From Octopus vulgaris (Eukaryota): 64,000 nt of DNA. Below the pieces are notes generated by a model, which made no database searches, was not told the origin of the DNA, and saw only the letters and a program-made list of their open reading frames with translations. Positions 10,162-56,157 of this stretch are shown one piece after another. Positions within the stretch are counted from its first letter, which is position 1; every line of letters begins with the position of its first letter. Location of the stretch: the NCBI GenBank assembly GCA_951406725.2, contig OX597839.1, positions 16,058,001 to 16,122,000 of the forward strand, given 5' to 3'. Position numbers and translations under genes: made by a program.

Positions 10162-10350
10162 TTAAGTAGGTGAATGAATTATCCTAGCATGGAAAATTCG
10201 TTTAAGCGATACCTGGGTAGCAAATTCACGTCAGAAAACACGGTTGCAGCGACCTGTCAAGGGTAGAAACTCCGGGTTCTCGTGTGGAAATTTCTGTGTT
10301 TTTTATATGAATAAATGAAAGAATGGAGTCGAACAAAGATTTTAACAAAA

Positions 10351-10448
10351 TTCCTTTACACTCGAAACATGCTTCGAAGACGGCATACTTTTAATTCCGA
10401 AGGAATAAAGGGTGCATTATGCCATCTTCTCATCAGGAAAGATAAGGA
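10351..10448 (-). ncRNA. Type I hammerhead ribozyme motif in 3' pLTR (degenerate stem III)
   Basis: Reverse-complement copy: CTGATGA, the same long stem II, GAAG-catgtttc. Confidence 0.72.
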
Positions 10449-10999
10449 GCCTCTTTCAGCCACAAGACGAACAAAAGTTTTTGGTGATTGCCTACATGGT
10501 GACCACAGTGAAAATGAGTGTTTTTTTAAAATAATCCGTTATAAGCAATGACGTCAAAAATGGGTAGAAGGAGTATTAAAATAGGTAGGGGACACTATGT
10601 ATGCTGTATGTATGGGGATGTGCAGGTGTGTGCTTGTGATAATGAGTGCGAGTTTTTGTGTATGTGTATGAGTGCGGGTATATAACTGCATTTGTGTCTG
10701 TGTATGTGTGATTGTGCGTGTGAGGGAGACAAACGTCAAAAATACTTAACAGTAAGGTGTAAAATTTGTGTCTGTGTGTTTGATTGTGTGTGTTATAGAG
10801 AGAGAGAGGGAGATATATAAACTTACGTCAAAGATATTTAGTAGTAATGGAATAAATAACGGAGCAGAAAGAAAGTTCAAAGGCATAGGAAAGAATTTGT
10901 CTATGGCAGTGGTGTTGATGGAAAGCCAATTGTTAAAACTAAAGTGGTTATCTATATTATTTATATGAGTGGAAAGTGTGTTTCTGCCAATGCTTACAC

Positions 11000-12997
11000 T
11001 TATACAATTTTTTCTATGAGTGTGTTTACTAGGGCGAAAAGGATATAGAAGAGTTCAGAATTACAAATGTTACAAAATTTTTTGCCCTTGTCAAAAGGAA
11101 ATGATATAGACAATATAAACCAATCCAACTTGAAAGTTATATTATTGTCTTTAAGACGCCAAACTAATTTACTCAGTCCTGTACTATGTCGTTTTTTCTT
11201 ATCTCGGAAAGTCGAATAATGATTGGAAATTCTCTTGGATAACTGAGTTGTCACACCTATATAGAAGAAGACATCGGTACCGGAAGAAATTCTACACTGG
11301 TAAATGGAATTCTTAATTTTGGAATTACTGGACAAAAATTTTAATCTATTAGGGTTTTCCTCAGAGATCGAGACGGAGTTTTTATTGTTATGATTGTTGC
11401 TTTTATTACTACTAGCGGTAACAACTACACTATTTCTATTATTATTAATTGTACTACAACCAGCAATATCCCCTACAATAGTACCGTTGTTGTTGTTACC
11501 ATCAACACTACCGCTGTTATTAACCCGACTAATACTATTATTAATACTATCATTGCTAACACTAACGCTGCTACGAATGCTGTTACTATCAATACTATTT
11601 CTATTATTGTGATTGTATGATGGGTTGGAATTGGAAAGATTAGTGCTGGAACTCCCAGGTGAAGAATTTTTATTTAGCAGCTTGTTATTATGGGAAGAAA
11701 TAATTTGCGAAAGATTCCTAGTGTTAGAGAATGCTATTCTTACCTTGTGTGAATTGATAATGAAATGATATCTAGAATTACTGGGAAAGTTCCTAGCAAT
11801 GGCTTCACGGAACTGTAAGGGAAGGTTCGATTTGATTTGTTTTCCGAAAGGTATTACAAACCAGATACAGTTTTTTGTGGACTTTGAATTGTTCCTAGTG
11901 TTATTTGTGACAGTAAGGGGAAAATTTCTGTGTTGGAAATTTGGAGTTGGGTGGCGCTTACCTCCCCTAGTCTGTAAAGGATTTATTTTATGTACAGGGG
12001 TGTTGGCACTATTAGAATTGGAATCATTATTTTTATTACTACTATTATGAGTAATTTTCCTATCTTGAGAAGCATATGTTGGTTTAGAATGAGCTGGGTC
12101 GATGTATGATACTTTTTCCTTATAACCGGCTTTTGACAAGGCGGTGTTATAGAATTCCGCTTTTTGGTTAAAGATGTCGACATTAGCAGATAATTTTGAT
12201 AGTCTCAGAGATATGTTTTTAACTAAATTATCGGTAATTGGCTTGGCATGATTACTGAAAATGCTGATATATTTTAGATTAGTAGAAGGTTTATGATAAG
12301 GGAAGTATGAGTTATTCTGCAGATTGAGGGTAATGTCTAAGAAGTTGGCTTTAGTTAACTCATTGTCAAAAACTATGCTCAAGCCCATTCTACTAAAAAA
12401 CCTAACTAATCTGATCTTAACATTCTGTATTTTTTGGTTCGAAGCATTCTGGAAGTAAAGTAGACAATCGTCGCGATAAAGACCTCCACAGATGTCCGGG
12501 AATTGGTCGGCCATTTCACAGAGGATATAAATTCCGACCAAATCGGCTATCTGGGCGCTGTCTGTACTTCCCATTAGTACATCAAATGCGTTAGGGGTGT
12601 CTTTACGGACCCACAACTTGCTATCGAACTGTATGAAAGATTTTCTAGCTACCAATATCACATCAATTTCATCTCTGGAGAGGCCTGCCTTATTGTGTGC
12701 GTGCCATAGGGCCTTATTAAGTACACTAGTGTTGATTGAAGGGTAGAAACTAGATATATCGAATTGTATAAATTTTGTTTTGGCCTTATCGGTAATAGAA
12801 GTAAACCACTCTACGACTTGAGCAGAGTTGGACCATAAGCTGAGTTTTAACTTATTAATTAATATAGGTATATACTTATCTAATATGTATTTACTAAGGG
12901 TACCGATGTCTGAACTGGAAGGGCATATGAGCCGCAATGCTGGGTTGGTATGAAAGTTCTGTTTGTGGTCCTTTAAGATGAATCTTGGTTGTCTGGG
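11000..12997 (-). CDS. PLE reverse transcriptase + GIY-YIG endonuclease ORF (5'-truncated; frame open upstream of the annotated start)
   Basis: LKDHK...RLICP, FDISSFYPSI, LMGS..SAQIAD, GLYRDDCL RT motifs; SIYQC...YIGVT...KR..NH and C-terminal CNIC..E GIY-YIG motifs; no stop in 645+ codons. Confidence 0.92.
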   Translation of the reverse strand, partial: PRQPRFILKDHKQNFHTNPALRLICPSSSDIGTLSKYILDKYIPILINKLKLSLWSNSAQVVEWFTSITDKAKTKFIQFDISSFYPSINTSVLNKALWHAHNKAGLSRDEIDVILVARKSFIQFDSKLWVRKDTPNAFDVLMGSTDSAQIADLVGIYILCEMADQFPDICGGLYRDDCLLYFQNASNQKIQNVKIRLVRFFSRMGLSIVFDNELTKANFLDITLNLQNNSYFPYHKPSTNLKYISIFSNHAKPITDNLVKNISLRLSKLSANVDIFNQKAEFYNTALSKAGYKEKVSYIDPAHSKPTYASQDRKITHNSSNKNNDSNSNSANTPVHKINPLQTRGGKRHPTPNFQHRNFPLTVTNNTRNNSKSTKNCIWFVIPFGKQIKSNLPLQFREAIARNFPSNSRYHFIINSHKVRIAFSNTRNLSQIISSHNNKLLNKNSSPGSSSTNLSNSNPSYNHNNRNSIDSNSIRSSVSVSNDSINNSISRVNNSGSVDGNNNNGTIVGDIAGCSTINNNRNSVVVTASSNKSNNHNNKNSVSISEENPNRLKFLSSNSKIKNSIYQCRISSGTDVFFYIGVTTQLSKRISNHYSTFRDKKKRHSTGLSKLVWRLKDNNITFKLDWFILSISFPFDKGKKFCNICNSELFYILFALVNTLIEKIV

Positions 12998-13021
12998 GTT
13001 CGTCTTGTGGCAGAAAGAGGC

Positions 13022-13119
13022 TCCTTATCTTTCCTGATGAGAAGATGGCATAATGCACCCTTTATTCCTTCGGAATTAAAAGTATGCCGTCTTCGAAACA
13101 TGTGCCGAGAGTAAAGGAA
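13022..13119 (+). ncRNA. Type I hammerhead ribozyme motif in inverted pLTR (triplet mutated GUC>GCC)
   Basis: ctttc-CTGATGA-gaagatggcata...tatgccgtcttc-GAAA-catgtgcc-gagag; stems I, II and III visible. Confidence 0.78.
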
Positions 13120-13288
13120 TTTTGTTAAAATCTACATTCGACTCCATTCTTTCATTTATTCATATATATATATATATATATATAGGGAAGGAAAAATTGT
13201 AAAAAGGCAGAATGCTAAATTGAAGGAAAATTTTTATGAAAATGGGTGTATGGAAAATTTTGAAAAATTGATAAAATATATATATATT

Positions 13289-13330
13289 AATTCAAACCAG
13301 TTTTCGTCATAATGTGACTTTTCAAGAATT
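13289..13330 (-). ncRNA. Minimal type I hammerhead, U3-A8 core variant (inverted copy)
   Basis: aattc-TTGAAAA-gtca catta tgac-GAAA-actggtt-t-gaatt; stems I (5 bp), II (4 bp) and III intact. Confidence 0.68.
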
Positions 13331-13915
13331 GTAAAGAAAAAATTTTTTTTTAAATGTGAGGAGGGGAAAAAAAGAAAATTACATTGTTTTTTGCAAAAAA
13401 ATAATAATAATTATATACAAAAATTAAAAAATAGGTACTCCGATACATTGTAAAGACTTTGTGTATCTTGAGCTTAATGATAGTTCACCAAAAAATTACC
13501 TTGAAGTATTGAGATCCAATGGGATTAAATCCATGTGTTGTTTAATTTAATTAAGGGTGTCTCTTAAGTGAATGGCAAAACAGGAAGTAGTAGTCCAGTT
13601 CCTGTGTTGTGAATAAGGGGAGACAACTCTATGGGTTTTAAGCTCTTCAATTTGTGTTTATCAATTTTTTGTAATAAAGGGTGTTCATAAACCTTAAATT
13701 ATAAAATTATCCTTTTAGCTTCATTTGCATTATCTTTTTTTTATATAATTGTTTGCTAACTTAACATTCAGATTTTAACACTTTATTTATATTGTTTTCT
13801 AATTATATAAATTACACTGAAAACCACCCAACCCAACAACACACACAACCCCAAAAATATCGAAGCATACACCACAATCATACAAAACCTCACTCTACTG
13901 TCAACAGACCCAAAA

Positions 13916-14440
13916 ATGAAAAACATTATAAATACACACAAAATCCTCAAATGTAAAAGGCAACACAAATCTTTAAAAAAACTCTTGACAAATGCCAAAC
14001 TTCACATACCACATCCACCCCCAGCGGTTAAAAAATGTGCACGCCCAAACTGTGGCACCTGCCCCTTCCTACTTGAAGGCTCTGAATTTATCTTCAAACA
14101 AGGAATGAAGTTTAAAATCAAGACCAACTTCTCCTGTTCCTCCGAGAACCTTATCTACGTTCTCACGTGCGCCGGTTGCCAACATAATTATGTTGGACAA
14201 ACGAGTCTCCCGTTACGTAAAAGAGTAGCGGTGCATAAAGAACAAATAAATCTCCCGGAATACCGGCAAATCCCACTGAGTGACAACATAGACACATGCA
14301 CTAAAGACAAAAATCCCAAATTCTACATATTCCCTTTCTACCAATGTAAAGACGGAATCACCACACATGAGAGAATTAACAAGGAGAATCTCTTTATTGA
14401 AAAATTCAAAACGCATCTTAATATGCAAATTCCTCGTTGA
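13916..14440 (+). CDS. PLE C-terminal linker + GIY-YIG endonuclease fragment
   Basis: KRQ..LKKLL, Cx4CxxC linker (CARPNCGTC), NLIYVLTCAGC..YVGQT..LRKR..H, R..KE..FI; upstream in-frame THNPKN. Confidence 0.9.
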   Translation: MKNIINTHKILKCKRQHKSLKKLLTNAKLHIPHPPPAVKKCARPNCGTCPFLLEGSEFIFKQGMKFKIKTNFSCSSENLIYVLTCAGCQHNYVGQTSLPLRKRVAVHKEQINLPEYRQIPLSDNIDTCTKDKNPKFYIFPFYQCKDGITTHERINKENLFIEKFKTHLNMQIPR

Positions 14441-15103
14441 TCATACTTCTTTTTTCTACCTCATTCTTCATGGATGTACTAACACAAACATATAAGGATA
14501 CCATGCAGTCATCACTTCACGCTAAAACTTATATTCTTTAAATATCATTATTAATATTGTTGTTATTACTATTATTTTTATTATATATGACATAACAATC
14601 TGAAATGTAATTATAAATTGGTTTATACAAATTTATATAATTAGAAAACAATAAATATAAAGTGTTAAAATCTGAATGTTGTTAGCAAACAATTATATAA
14701 AAAAAGATAATGCAAATGAAGCTAAAAGGATAATTTTATAATTTAAGGTTTATTAACACCCTTTATTATAAAAAATTGATAAACACAAATTGAAGAGGTT
14801 AAAACCCATAGAGTTGTCTCCCCTTATTCACAACACAGGAACTGGACTTCTACTTCCTGTTTTGCCATTCACTTAAGAGACACCCTTAATTAAATTAAAC
14901 AACACGTGGATTTAATCCCATTGGATCTCAATACTTCAAGGTAATTTTTTGGTGAACTATCATTAAACTCAAGATACACAAAGACTTTACAATGTATCGG
15001 AGTACCTATTTAAAAATTTTTGTATATATTATTTTTTTGCAAAAAACAATATAATTTTCTTTTTTCCCCCTCCTCACATTTAAAAAAAAAATTTTTTCTT
15101 TAC

Positions 15104-15145
15104 AATTCTTGAAAAGTCACATTATGATGAAAACCAGTTTGAATT
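15104..15145 (+). ncRNA. Minimal type I hammerhead, U3-A8 core variant
   Basis: aattc-TTGAAAA-gtca catta tgat-GAAA-accagtt-t-gaatt. Confidence 0.62.
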
Positions 15146-15273
15146 AATATATATATATTTTATCAATTTTTTAAAATTTTCCATACACCCGTCTTCATTA
15201 AAATTTTCCTTCAATTTAGCATTCTGCCATTTTACAATTTTTCCTTCCCTATCATTTCACCACGTGCGGTCAA

Positions 15274-16857
15274 CATTGTTTTTGTCAGAAAAGTAGGTAT
15301 AAGTTTTTATTAAAGTTGTTTTATATTCTATAATTTTCACAGACAATAAATACAATATTAATTGGTATTGTCTGAGATTTTGGTGCAATTTGAGTGGGTA
15401 ATACAAAAGTTATGGATGATATAGCGATTTACTGCAAAGCCCATTGCGGCCAAAATGATCAGAACGATTGAAAAAATAACAAAATAATCAAAAATGACAG
15501 AGAATGCTGGAATTATTTCATATTTAGTGTGAACCCCTTTAGCTTCAATCAAACTTTGACATCTTCAACTGCATGAGGAAATTAAATTTCTTGCTGGGTG
15601 ATCTTATTCCATTCTTCCTGAAGGGCATTCCATAATTGCTTGGTTGTTTTAGGATTTCTGGCTTTCGAACGTTCTCCTAGAATATTCCACACATTTTCAA
15701 TAGGATTGAGATCTGGGCTTTGAGCAGGCCAATCCATAACAATAACCTTTTCAGCCTTGAGGAAGTTCATGACCACCTTAGCCTTGTGACATGGGGCATT
15801 GTCCTGCATGAATATGGGCGGTCGCTTAGTTGAATTTTTCAGCATAGGGAAGACATGATCTTTTACAAGTTATTTATAAACTCCTGCATTTACCTTTCCG
15901 TGTAATCACACCAAAGGGCCCACACCATCTCCAGATATCATCCCCCAAACCATGATACTTCTTCCACCGAATTTAACACTAGTCTTAAGGCATTTTAGGT
16001 GACAATTTTTCACCTACTTTTCGACGAATAGCAGACATATTTGAGCCAAATAACATAGACTTAGATTCATCACTGAAATGCCATTTTTCTTGAGACTGCA
16101 ACACATGTTCGGGTGCAAAAGTTAAAACGACACTTTTTATTCTTGAAGCTGATCAGTGGCTTCACTGCAGGTGCTCTTGCTTGTAGGTCATGTTCAACTA
16201 AACGACGAGACAGTTTTTCGAGATAAAGTTTTCTTCAGTACAATGCTCATTTCCCGAGAAACAGCAGCAGCAGTTTTAAATCTATCCTTTTTAACCAACT
16301 TTACCATAGCACAATCTTCTCTCTTGGTCGTTTTTCTTGGCCTACCTGTAGACTTTCTTGCTTCACACGAACCACAATCATCGTAGACCTTAAGAATACC
16401 ATGAATAACACTTTTTGACTTGTTAACAATCTTTGCAATAGACCCAATACTTAAATTATCCTTCTTTCGAAGCTTAATAATCTGCTGACGAATTGGTAAC
16501 GGAGTAAGTGGCATTATATTAACAAAGTACACTGCAGATATGCTTACGGCGTGTTTCGTAAATGAACCGTCACATAAACAAATTCAAAACATTAGAGTTC
16601 GCTGGTTAAATATACTAAAACATAGAGTAGAAGCAACCGTTCTGATCATTTTGGCTGCCATGGGTTTTGCAGTAAATCGATAAATCATCCATAGCTTTTG
16701 TATTATCCTCTCAAATTATACCAAAATCTCAGACAATAACAAATAATATCGTATTTATTGTCTGTGAAAATTATAGAATATAAAACAACTTTGATAAAAA
16801 CTTATACCTACTTTTCTGACGAAAACAATGCCATTCTGAACATTTTGGCCACAACTG
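15274..16857 (-). mobile_element. Tc1-family DNA transposon with ~220-bp IR/DR terminal repeats
   Basis: TIRs at 15274-15466 and 16638-16857; right end CAGTTGTGGCC followed by TA; outer part of left TIR missing. Confidence 0.9.
15582..16532 (-). pseudogene. Tc1 transposase pseudogene (DD34E), frameshifted
   Basis: HTH/GRPRK, FSDESK, MVWG, FMQDNAPCH, SPDLNPIENVW spread over broken frames; 34 aa between D and E. Confidence 0.92.
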
Positions 16858-47512: not shown

Positions 47513-48530
47513 CCCTTTCGTTACCAAACCGCCCGAAAAAAATTTTGGTTAATGTGACCAAACCGCCCAAATTTATCTATTCATATTTAAATGAGAATAT
47601 CAGAGCAAATCTCTTTAGTACATTCGTGAAAATACGTATTATACTTCGTAAAGAGTTCAACTACAGTTTTGTACAAAAATCGAAGTGTAATTTTAATTCC
47701 GTGAATTTTGGGAGATTTTTTTCCGAAATTTGTTCATATTGTGTTTTCAAAATTTGTAATTCTGACAAAAAATGGATACGAATTTCATTATATCAAGCAG
47801 CGAGTCAGAATTCGAAGGATTTTCTACTAAAAGCATGTGGTATTTGATAATGACTCTGATGTTTCATTTTCCGAAAGTGAAAACAGTGAATCCGAGAGCT
47901 CCGACAGCAATAAAGAAAATGAATTGGCACCTGAATGGAGTGAAAATTTAAAAACTGTTTCTTTCGGTGATTTTTCTGAAGAAACTGGACCAAGCCACAG
48001 ACTTTCCCAGGAGAGTAAAGCCTTAGACTATTTCTTTTTACTTTTTCGAATGAGCCTATTTGAAATCATTACGGCGGAAACAAACCGTTACGCTGAAAGA
48101 AAGAAAGGATAGTTTGTGGTTTCCCACAACCTTAAATGAAATTAAGACTATTTTGCCATAAATATTATTATGGGTATCAGAAAGTTACCCAGAATAACAA
48201 ATTCTATCGTAAAATTTTGTTGTATACCCAATTGAATATTAGCTAATAACCCATTTTCTATAGCGATGTTTGAACAAAATTTTAACAATTTTATATTTTG
48301 TTGAATTTACCTGTATCTACCTGCAATTAGGGTCACTTTGTGACAAAAATTATAGTATAGAATTGGTTGAGAACATTTCATTAAATTATCTTCCAAAATT
48401 CACATTAATATATTGATAAATAAAAAAGTTATAGTTGTTTAATGAAACCAGACTAAATTTATGATTATGTTAGAAATTAATTGAAACACATAAGGAGTGT
48501 ATTTTGGTCAGAAATATAGTAACGAAAGGG
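47513..48530 (+). mobile_element. Internally deleted piggyBac element with N-terminal transposase remnant
   Basis: TTAA|CCCTTTCGTTAC...GTAACGAAAGGG|TTAA; ...DYFFLLF..LFEIITAETNRYA...TTLNEIK..FAINIIMGIRKLP. Confidence 0.9.
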
Positions 48531-48891
48531 TTAAGAATGGGCTTTGGCAACAAAAGTGTGGGTGAATATAAAATATAAGTCAAATACTGGGTGTAGGAAG
48601 GCATCGACAAGCCCCTCCCTTTAAGATTACTGGTCTTGTACCTTAATCAGTAGCCATTATAATTATTATTAGGGGCAGAAGATTGGCAGAATCGTTAGGC
48701 TCTTTATGTGCCAAGTTCAAATCTTGTTGAGGTCAACTTTGCAGTCTGATATGCTAATGAATCTTCCAGCTTGCTTTAATAATAATAATAATAATAATAA
48801 TGATAATAATTCAACTGTAGTCATAAAGCCAGAAATTTTGTGGGAGATTACATTGACCCATGTGCTCATCTGGTAATTATTTTATTGGCCG

Positions 48892-52494: not shown

Positions 52495-52627
52495 CTTTTT
52501 GCCAGAACCAATCTTCATAAGAGCCAAACATGTATCCTTAGCAATTCTGAAATCTTTCTCAGCTCGTGGTCCCAGTCCCTCGCTAACAAGTACAGCGATA
52601 TTGCTTTTGATAATTTTAGAGTCACCC
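52495..52627 (-). CDS. NCAPD2: NCAPD2 exon
   Basis: GDSKIIKSNIAVLVSEGLGPRAEKDFRIAKDTCLALMKI; tag|...|gtttg. Confidence 0.9.
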
Positions 52628-54212: not shown

Positions 54213-54680
54213 TGTTACGCTAAATGTAAACAAAGCAAAAGAAAGGATAGTTTGTGATTTCCCACAACCTTAAATGAAATTAAGGCCTATTTTGCCATAA
54301 ATATTATTATGAGTATCAGAAAGTTACCCAGAATAACAAATTCTATAGTAAAATTTTGTTGTATACCCAATTGAATATTAGCTAATAACCCAGTTTCTAT
54401 AGCGATGTTTGAACAAAAATTTTAATAATTTTATATTTTGTTGAATTTACCTGTATTTACCTGTATCTACCTGCAATTAGAGTCACTTTGTGACATAAAT
54501 TATAGTTTAGAATTGGTTGAGAACATTTCATTAAATTATCTTCCAAAAATCACATTAATATATTGATAAATAAAAAAGTTATAGTTGTTTAATGAAACCA
54601 GACTAAATTTATGATTATGTTAGAAATTAATTGAAACACATAAGGGGTGTATTTTGGTCAGAAATATAGTAACGAAAGGG
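54213..54680 (+). mobile_element. piggyBac 3' fragment (same family as 47513)
   Basis: Near-identical to 48085-48530, ends GTAACGAAAGGG|TTAA. Confidence 0.85.
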
Positions 54681-56157
54681 TTAATGTCTGCTCTCCATGC
54701 TGGCAGGGTTTGGACGGTTTGATATGGAGCCGGCCAGACTCCAGCTGTCTGCAGAGGTATGGTTTCCATAGCTGGATACCTTCCTAAAGCCAGCCACTAA
54801 ACAGAATGTACTGGGTGCTTTTTACATGCCACTAGTACGGGTGCATTTATGTAGCACCAGTATAGGTGCTTTTCAGTGGTGCCAGCACCCGAAGGGACAA
54901 GCCTGTATGCATGGAAGGCTTGTATGAACATTTATAAATATTGCTTTAACCCTTCAGCATTTAAACTGGCCGTATTTGGCCAAAATATTCTACCTGTTTT
55001 ATCTTCAAACTGGTCAGATCTGGCCTTTCACACCTAACTCAGTGTCGTTTTACAAATTAACAATCACATCATCGAAATCTCAAAGCTATGAAATAATGCA
55101 TAATTAATTCAAAATTATACAATTACTTCAGCATTACATTTGACAGAATAATCTGAACACTAAAGAGTTCATCATCATCATCGTCTGCTTTCCATGCTAG
55201 CATGGGTTGGACGATTATGACTGAGGGCTGGCGAACCAGATGGCTGCACCAGGCTCCAATCTTGATTTGGCAGAGTTTCTACAGCTTGATGCCCTTCCCA
55301 ACGCCAACCACTCCGAGAGTGCAGTGGGTGCCTTTTACGTGCCACCGGCACGGGGGCCAGTCAGGTGGTACTGGCAACGACCTTGCTTGAATCCTTTTAC
55401 ACATGCCACCAGTACAGGTGCCAGTAAGGCGACGATGATAACGATCAAGCTTGAATGGTGCCCTTTTACGTGCCACTGGCACAGAAGCCAGTTGGCTGCT
55501 CTGGCAACGATCACGCTTGGATGGTGCTCTAAAGGGTTAAAAATGGAAATCATCATCATTTAATGTCTGTTTTCCATGCTGGCATGGGTTGGACAGTTTG
55601 ACAGGAGCTGACCAGCTGAAGGTCTGTTCAGGCTCCATAGTCTCTTTTGACATGGTTTCTATGACATCCACCTCACAGAATGTACTGGGTACTTTTACAC
55701 AGCACCAGCACAGGTGCTTTTTATGTGGCACCAGCACCAATGAGGTTGCGAGATTAGGGATGCTCAGCAGGAGAGGCTTGCAGGGGGTGAGCCTGTAAGC
55801 AAGGACAGCCATGCTTTTACTTACTTAGACATGTTTTTTCAAGCACAGCAAACCACCAGGAATCTCGGTCCCGTCGTTTCCTCTGTGAGTCTCAACATCT
55901 GTAGGTCTTTTCCCACATCTTCCTGGTTATACCCCTCCCACATGTTCACTCTACAATTACAGATTGGCACCTCTTGATGCAACTGTCTTCATTCATATGC
56001 ACTAAATGGCCATAACAGTGTAGTCTTCTCTCTTGTACACTACATCCTTATGAGCCTGGCATGGCTCGAGAAGGAACATTTTATTTATTATTATACCCAA
56101 TTTTTCTCTCAAATCACTTACACACTTATGCATACTGATATTACCCATCCGGTGAAA

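Follow-up and report, generated by a model that had tools for sequence, protein, structure and literature searches.

The two arms of an inverted repeat belonging to a Penelope-like element (PLE) were found to carry one copy each of a 42-nt motif with the architecture of a minimal type I hammerhead ribozyme, in which U3-A8 stands in place of the usual C3-G8 pair. The element lies in a 64-kb stretch of DNA that was analysed as a whole and is referred to here as the window. It is close to certain that the motif descends from a hammerhead. The motif is probably a U3-A8 minimal type I hammerhead of a Neptune-like pseudo-LTR (pLTR) that, as a tandem dimer in the parent element, would cut after U17. 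Judged by analogy with published hammerheads of this kind, the form prevailing in the family may well cleave, an expectation held almost as firmly. The two genomic copies described here, in contrast, are very unlikely to cleave and are likely inactive relics: one is on the + and the other on the - strand, CpGs have disappeared from their stems II and III, and in a read-through RNA they are predicted to be buried in a duplex between the arms. These data define no new ribozyme class or mechanism, and the U3-A8 variant itself is already known; the particular family that carries it here may be unreported, and it extends the swap to one more kind of host and element setting.

Table 1. Positions of the Penelope-like element, its hammerhead motifs and neighbouring repeats in the window.
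Feature	Position	Strand	Remark
Left arm, pLTR copy, inverted and 5'-truncated	13182..13813	-	adjoins (TA)n at about 13162-13184
ORF, 3' end	13811..14440	+	209 aa stop to stop, without RT part; CX4CxxC linker and GIY-YIG
Right arm, 3' region / pLTR of the PLE	14630..15252	+	blastn against left arm
PLE tail extension, likely	15253..15273	+	at one end only
Left hammerhead, inverted arm	13330..13289	-	U3 = 13325, A8 = 13320; G10.1-C11.1 intact
Left predicted cleavage position	13294/13293	-	
Right hammerhead, minimal type I, right pLTR copy	15104..15145	+	sense to endonuclease ORF
Right stem I	15104-08/15141-45	+	
Right U3-A9 core	15109-15	+	U3 = 15109, A8 = 15114
Right stem II	15116-19/15125-28	+	
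Right G12-A14	15129-31	+	
Right stem III segment	15132-39	+	palindrome broken
Right U17	15140	+	
Right predicted cleavage position	15140/15141	+	
Unrelated neighbour Penelope element	11000-13024	-	inverted repeat 10304-10472 / 12998-13166
Neighbour hammerhead core	13034	+	canonical C3-G8
Neighbour hammerhead core	10436	-	canonical C3-G8
Element with 197-bp inverted repeats	15274-16857		broken transposase
Direct repeat	48100-48534 / 54238-54684		447 columns, 94.9% identity, 6.1 kb apart

The presence of the motif in both arms, as claimed in the earlier note, was confirmed at the positions in Table 1. Both copies form five of five stem I pairs and four of four stem II pairs, the latter closed by a loop of 5 nt. 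The core reads U3 U4 G5 A6 A7 A8 A9 and then G12 A13 A14, and a stem III segment of 8 nt extends from A15.1 to U16.1 and is followed by U at H17. Outside the 3-8 pair the core of both copies is canonical (U4 G5 A6 A9, G12 A13 A14, A15.1-U16.1, H17). Neither copy matches the literal CUGANGA consensus; both match the core consensus with a Watson-Crick 3-8 pair, this pair being U-A, and the earlier view that the swap keeps 3-8 pairing therefore stands for both. The two motifs differ at three of 42 positions (15128, 15135 and 15136), every one of them at a CpG site, and CpG-type changes account for 5 of the 11 transitions between the whole arms. The 10.1-11.1 pair is G-C in the left copy and a G·U wobble in the right copy (U at 15128), so that the single motif string previously written for both arms holds for the left copy (UGAC) and fails for the right one, where the 3' strand of stem II is UGAU. 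The stem III segment is AACCAGUU in the right copy and AACUGGUU in the left copy. On the + strand both arms carry the identical decayed form of the palindrome (13295-13296 and 15135-15136), which probably reflects two ordinary CpG losses, and the stem III RNA segments of the two arms are mutually complementary throughout (-8.6 kcal/mol).

The arms are 94.8% identical over 633 columns (blastn), and the ORF between them scored 24.1 bits against PF01541 (cut-off 22.6). This ORF keeps the linker residues C76/C81/C84 together with C120/C123 and H142 of the CCHH motif, all of them at positions conserved across homologs (n=153). In this copy the conserved His159, the last His of CCHH, is replaced by Asn (His in 137 of 144 aligned homologs), and the conserved Pro201 by Thr (Pro in 111 of 127). 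Three longer relatives of the ORF, with identities of 63% (P0001), 56% and 44%, are RT plus endonuclease proteins, and the RT DD motif lies upstream of the linker in all 23 homologs of at least 600 aa. Relatives of the endonuclease were absent from viral contigs (7 candidates) and prokaryotic genomes (124 candidates), in which the hammerhead motif likewise had no match. The layout runs from the inverted truncated pLTR through the ORF 3' end and the pLTR to a one-sided tail, with a (TA)n site, and the loose end of two contigs of one sequencing run (X16) continues into the tail. Inverted 5'-truncated pLTRs and tails of this kind have been described for PLEs (Craig et al. 2021, PMC8557442). On the characters set out in that paper, and as far as sequence allows assignment, the element is a 5'-truncated Neptune/Nematis-type (Neptune-like) PLE: it shares with this type the CX2-5CxxC linker, a CCHH-type GIY-YIG domain C-terminal to RT, the inverted 5'-truncated copy, the one-sided tail, (TA)n and a pLTR hammerhead, and this copy departs from it in having no RT part and in the Asn at the last CCHH His. 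Identity with Naiad was ruled out, the endonuclease being C-terminal in the homologs. The right hammerhead is situated on the + strand, 669 nt past the ORF stop codon, and the left one in the inverted arm. The earlier description of the motif as a minimal PLE hammerhead is borne out.

Sequencing runs gave evidence on the family beyond this locus. Part of the stretch is present in 20 of 24 listed runs under four organism labels, and the contigs of four of them were compared with 14940-15260 under an 80% likeness filter: X1, X3 and X5, which are DNA-type runs of organisms A, B and C, and X16, presumed to be RNA. The repeat family was covered in all four. With depths weighted by contig, which are not copy numbers, C occupies position 15128 at 96, 99 and 91% of depth in X1, X3 and X5 (33, 23 and 13 contigs), and G occupies position 15136 at 98, 99 and 90% (37, 23 and 13 contigs). 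The family-majority form in these three runs thus has the G10.1-C11.1 pair and the palindrome AACCGGUU at 90-99% of depth, which supports CpG decay as the source of the differences between the arms; the family G at 15136 agrees with the earlier proposal of a palindrome containing CpG as the origin of both stem III copies. Five of the 40 variants listed (of 56 in total) fall within the motif, and none of the 40 affects U3 or A8. Stem I, U3-A9, G12-A15.1 and U16.1/U17 are untouched by these 40 variants and by the 12 indels listed of 18. The 16 further variants include at least one A>G and at least one T>C place in X1, and for this reason, and because of the 80% likeness filter, a minority C3-G8 subfamily may exist within the family. 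Among the minor variants, A15124G (12-21%) would lengthen stem II to five pairs through a C-G, and T15125C (11-17% of depth) would disrupt the fourth, with no compensating partner change among the variants listed. Moreover, X16 is represented over the motif by one contig, and its C at 15136 disrupts the palindrome; this contig and T15125C count against strict selection. No two-sided change within the family was seen among the variants listed.

Coding sequences related to the endonuclease region occur in five metagenome loci, and in two of these a minimal hammerhead lies on the sense strand 3' of the region matched (L002, at 1993; L005, at 2594). Both are C3-G8 and have other stem letters, and their palindromic stem III segments measure 6 nt in L002 and 4 nt in L005. 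No hammerhead was found in L001, where 218 nt follow the match, or in L004; in L003 the match lies at the contig end, and there was no hammerhead and one non-hammerhead-like match. The U3-A8 pattern was absent from all five loci, which provide no second U3-A8 family. The base pairs of the four motifs were read by hand-set coordinates, the MAFFT alignment being out of structural register. In the window itself, the unrelated Penelope neighbour likewise has C3-G8 in both of its inverted repeats. From these few sequences, with homology of the RNAs judged by position, the 3-8 pair appears to covary between families. In L005 (2068-2630) the match to the endonuclease linker stops at unrelated GC-rich sequence, which is followed by the canonical minimal hammerhead, and this segment may represent a non-autonomous or chimeric element.

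A strict type I hammerhead descriptor was run on the whole window, with 100 block-wise dinucleotide shuffles as control. It gave three U3-A8 matches, in the two arms and at 52607, and none with a C3-G8, C3-A8 or U3-G8 core; the shuffled sequences gave a mean of 0.01 U3-A8 matches per 64 kb. The match at 52607 was dismissed as a chance one, being AT-rich and without a palindrome, with a stem II of U and A only and a 28-nt loop, and it suggests that the shuffles underestimate chance in low-complexity DNA. Furthermore, since the arms are copies of each other, their two matches amount to a single event. The motif could be a chance match in AT-rich DNA that the inverted repeat has doubled, a reading to which the A/T run of the core, the chance-like match at 52607 and the silence of Rfam lend some weight. 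Against it stand the rarity of matches in shuffled sequence and better evidence than this number, namely the correct place and strand of the sense copy in the pLTR and the similarly placed hammerheads of the related L002 and L005. It is largely refuted by the family majority, in which both defects of the right copy, the wobble and the broken palindrome, are repaired, and we regard it as extremely improbable. As to Rfam, the U3-A8 copies gave 40 and 6 matches at E<=10, none of them to a hammerhead family, and the C3-G8 relative L002 scored a weak 19.8 bits with Hammerhead_3, against a gathering score of 48.5. That a canonical motif also falls far under this score shows the Rfam models to be insensitive to the minimal form. 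The earlier expectation that CUGANGA searches overlook the variant was thus correct and extends to Rfam, and searches restricted to either undercount Penelope hammerheads.

Folding predictions bear on how such an RNA could act. The active fold of the monomer, with stem III closed, lies at +2.5 to +4.7 kcal/mol and is not favoured in these models. The stem I duplex contributes -0.7 kcal/mol, and the probability of stem I in a 200-nt context is about 0. The palindromic 8-mer as a self-duplex reaches -10.1 kcal/mol; the left stem III segment pairs with itself at -5.0 kcal/mol through two G·U pairs, and the right segment at 0.0. In an intact pLTR-ORF-pLTR transcript, two tandem copies would pair through the 8-nt palindrome. 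Once paired, the copies would cleave this transcript 3' of U17, probably at a slow rate or aided by the element protein, and cleavage would serve to trim multimeric element RNA. Dimer formation and cleavage are proposed because hammerheads of the published class are inactive as monomers and weakly active as dimers, and protein help because of the protein dependence of the Anolis element. The locus itself has no two copies on the same strand, the only two in the window being on opposite strands, and a transcript spanning both arms is predicted to have 40 of 42 motif bases paired with the other arm in an arm duplex of about 620 bp; a dimer in cis was ruled out here on these two grounds.

The literature on PLE hammerheads can be read for and against such an activity. 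Minimal PLE hammerheads are described as inactive monomers and weakly active dimers (PMC4209133; review PMC6765202), and in an Anolis PLE cleavage needs the element protein and the 3-8 pair (PMC11167929). Hammerhead-dead mutants of the Anolis element show unchanged insertion in vitro (PMC11167929), which favours the alternatives to cleavage. One of these, which we consider unlikely, holds that the motif truly descends from a hammerhead but had no catalytic activity in the parent element either, AT-biased C3U and G8A changes having become fixed in a family able to spread with no RNA cleavage. Both changes are transitions toward A/U in an AT-rich context (33% GC), the stems are weak and the site is U17, and Naiad PLEs multiply without canonical hammerheads (PMC8557442). 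However, the two changes give back exactly a 3-8 Watson-Crick pair, and the remaining core, both stems and the 8-nt palindrome are intact in the family majority. Moreover, the same swap occurs in Schistosoma PLEs and U17 in 20 of 44 published PLE rows (PMC4209133). A further reading, less probable still, is that the motif was kept chiefly as a structural signal, the palindrome serving RNA dimerisation or the RT-endonuclease protein binding to the motif, and that cleavage is incidental. The palindrome is indeed the most stable part of the motif, far ahead of stem I, non-cleavage functions are allowed for by Cervera & de la Peña (PMC4209133), and no RNA-seq reads ending at the cut site are reported for the Anolis element (PMC11167929); a binding or dimer signal would, however, need neither the catalytic core nor the 3-8 covariation. 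A cleaving family form is the preferred reading, and in that case the repeated compensatory change at 3-8 would argue for selection for catalysis over passive carriage.

The novelty implied by the earlier note did not hold, as U3-A8 was published in 2014 for PLEs and in 2011 for natural cores, and its inference of a functional variant is unlikely to apply to these two copies. Perreault et al. 2011 (PMC3088659) reported natural U3-A8 hammerhead cores as a compensatory change preserving the active structure, and cited covarying 3-8 ribozymes as 'already proven to be active in vitro'; the change is the same as that found here, and no link to Penelope elements is apparent there. Cervera & de la Peña 2014 (PMC4209133) described for the Cercyon element a variant with 'U3-A8 instead of C3-G8', with about 1,300 matches to a U3-A8 descriptor in Schistosoma mansoni. 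Among 44 rows of their alignment, two are U3-A8 (both Schistosoma), one is U3·G8 and 20 have U17. The U3·G8 row, Saccoglossus(1), is a natural PLE hammerhead core, which makes the U3/G8 mismatch suggested earlier a weak negative control.

The Cercyon hammerheads described there are the nearest counterparts: both are minimal type I motifs of PLE pLTRs with U3-A8, a short stem I, AU-rich flanks and a palindromic helix III, both occur as opposite-strand pairs around truncated elements, and the Schistosoma_mansoni(4) family shares the UUGAAAA core and U17. The present motif differs in that 10.1 directly follows A9, stem II has 4 bp against 6 bp in Schistosoma_mansoni(4), the palindromic helix III segment has 8 nt against a minimal 4 nt, the stem letters are unrelated and the host is apparently another. 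The dimer-type PLE hammerheads of Drosophila, Aedes and Saccoglossus (PMC4209133; Lünse et al. via PMC6765202) resemble it in weak stems, pLTR position and a palindromic helix III of 6-10 nt, and their rows carry C3-G8 (one U3·G8) in contrast to U3-A8. The word 'Octopus' is absent from the searchable supplement of PMC4209133, and a literature search for cephalopod Penelope hammerheads brought up only Craig et al. (PMC8557442). In the literature searched, U3-A8 led mainly to the papers of 2011 and 2014, and no passage was found in which a PLE hammerhead of this type had itself been assayed; the available text of PMC7151607 and of bioRxiv 10.64898/2026.07.22.740005 contains nothing on U3-A8. A bolder version of the preferred reading is tentatively put forward and is rather doubtful: an abundant Neptune-like element common to several species would have switched 3-8 to U-A independently and family-wide, and its ribozyme would be paired too weakly to cut except as a protein-chaperoned dimer locked by the 8-bp palindrome. 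If so, selection for cleavage on Penelope hammerheads could be examined in a natural paired comparison with the neighbouring C3-G8 family in the same genome.

Several other repeats adjoin the element or share the window. The unrelated Penelope element on its left shares its terminal (TA)n tract with the U3-A8 element, and the hammerheads in both of its inverted repeats have an unusually long stem II of 12 pairs with a loop of about 30 nt. These two hammerheads show eight differences, four of which are concentrated in stem III and around the cleavage site, and both therefore look decayed. On the other side lies an element with a broken transposase, which we take to be Tc1/mariner-like in view of the inverted repeats and of the sequences of its frames; its left repeat is without the outer 27 nt or so, and the tail of the Penelope element sits at that place. 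Farther along the window, the two units of the direct repeat listed in Table 1 are possibly the LTRs of another retroelement.
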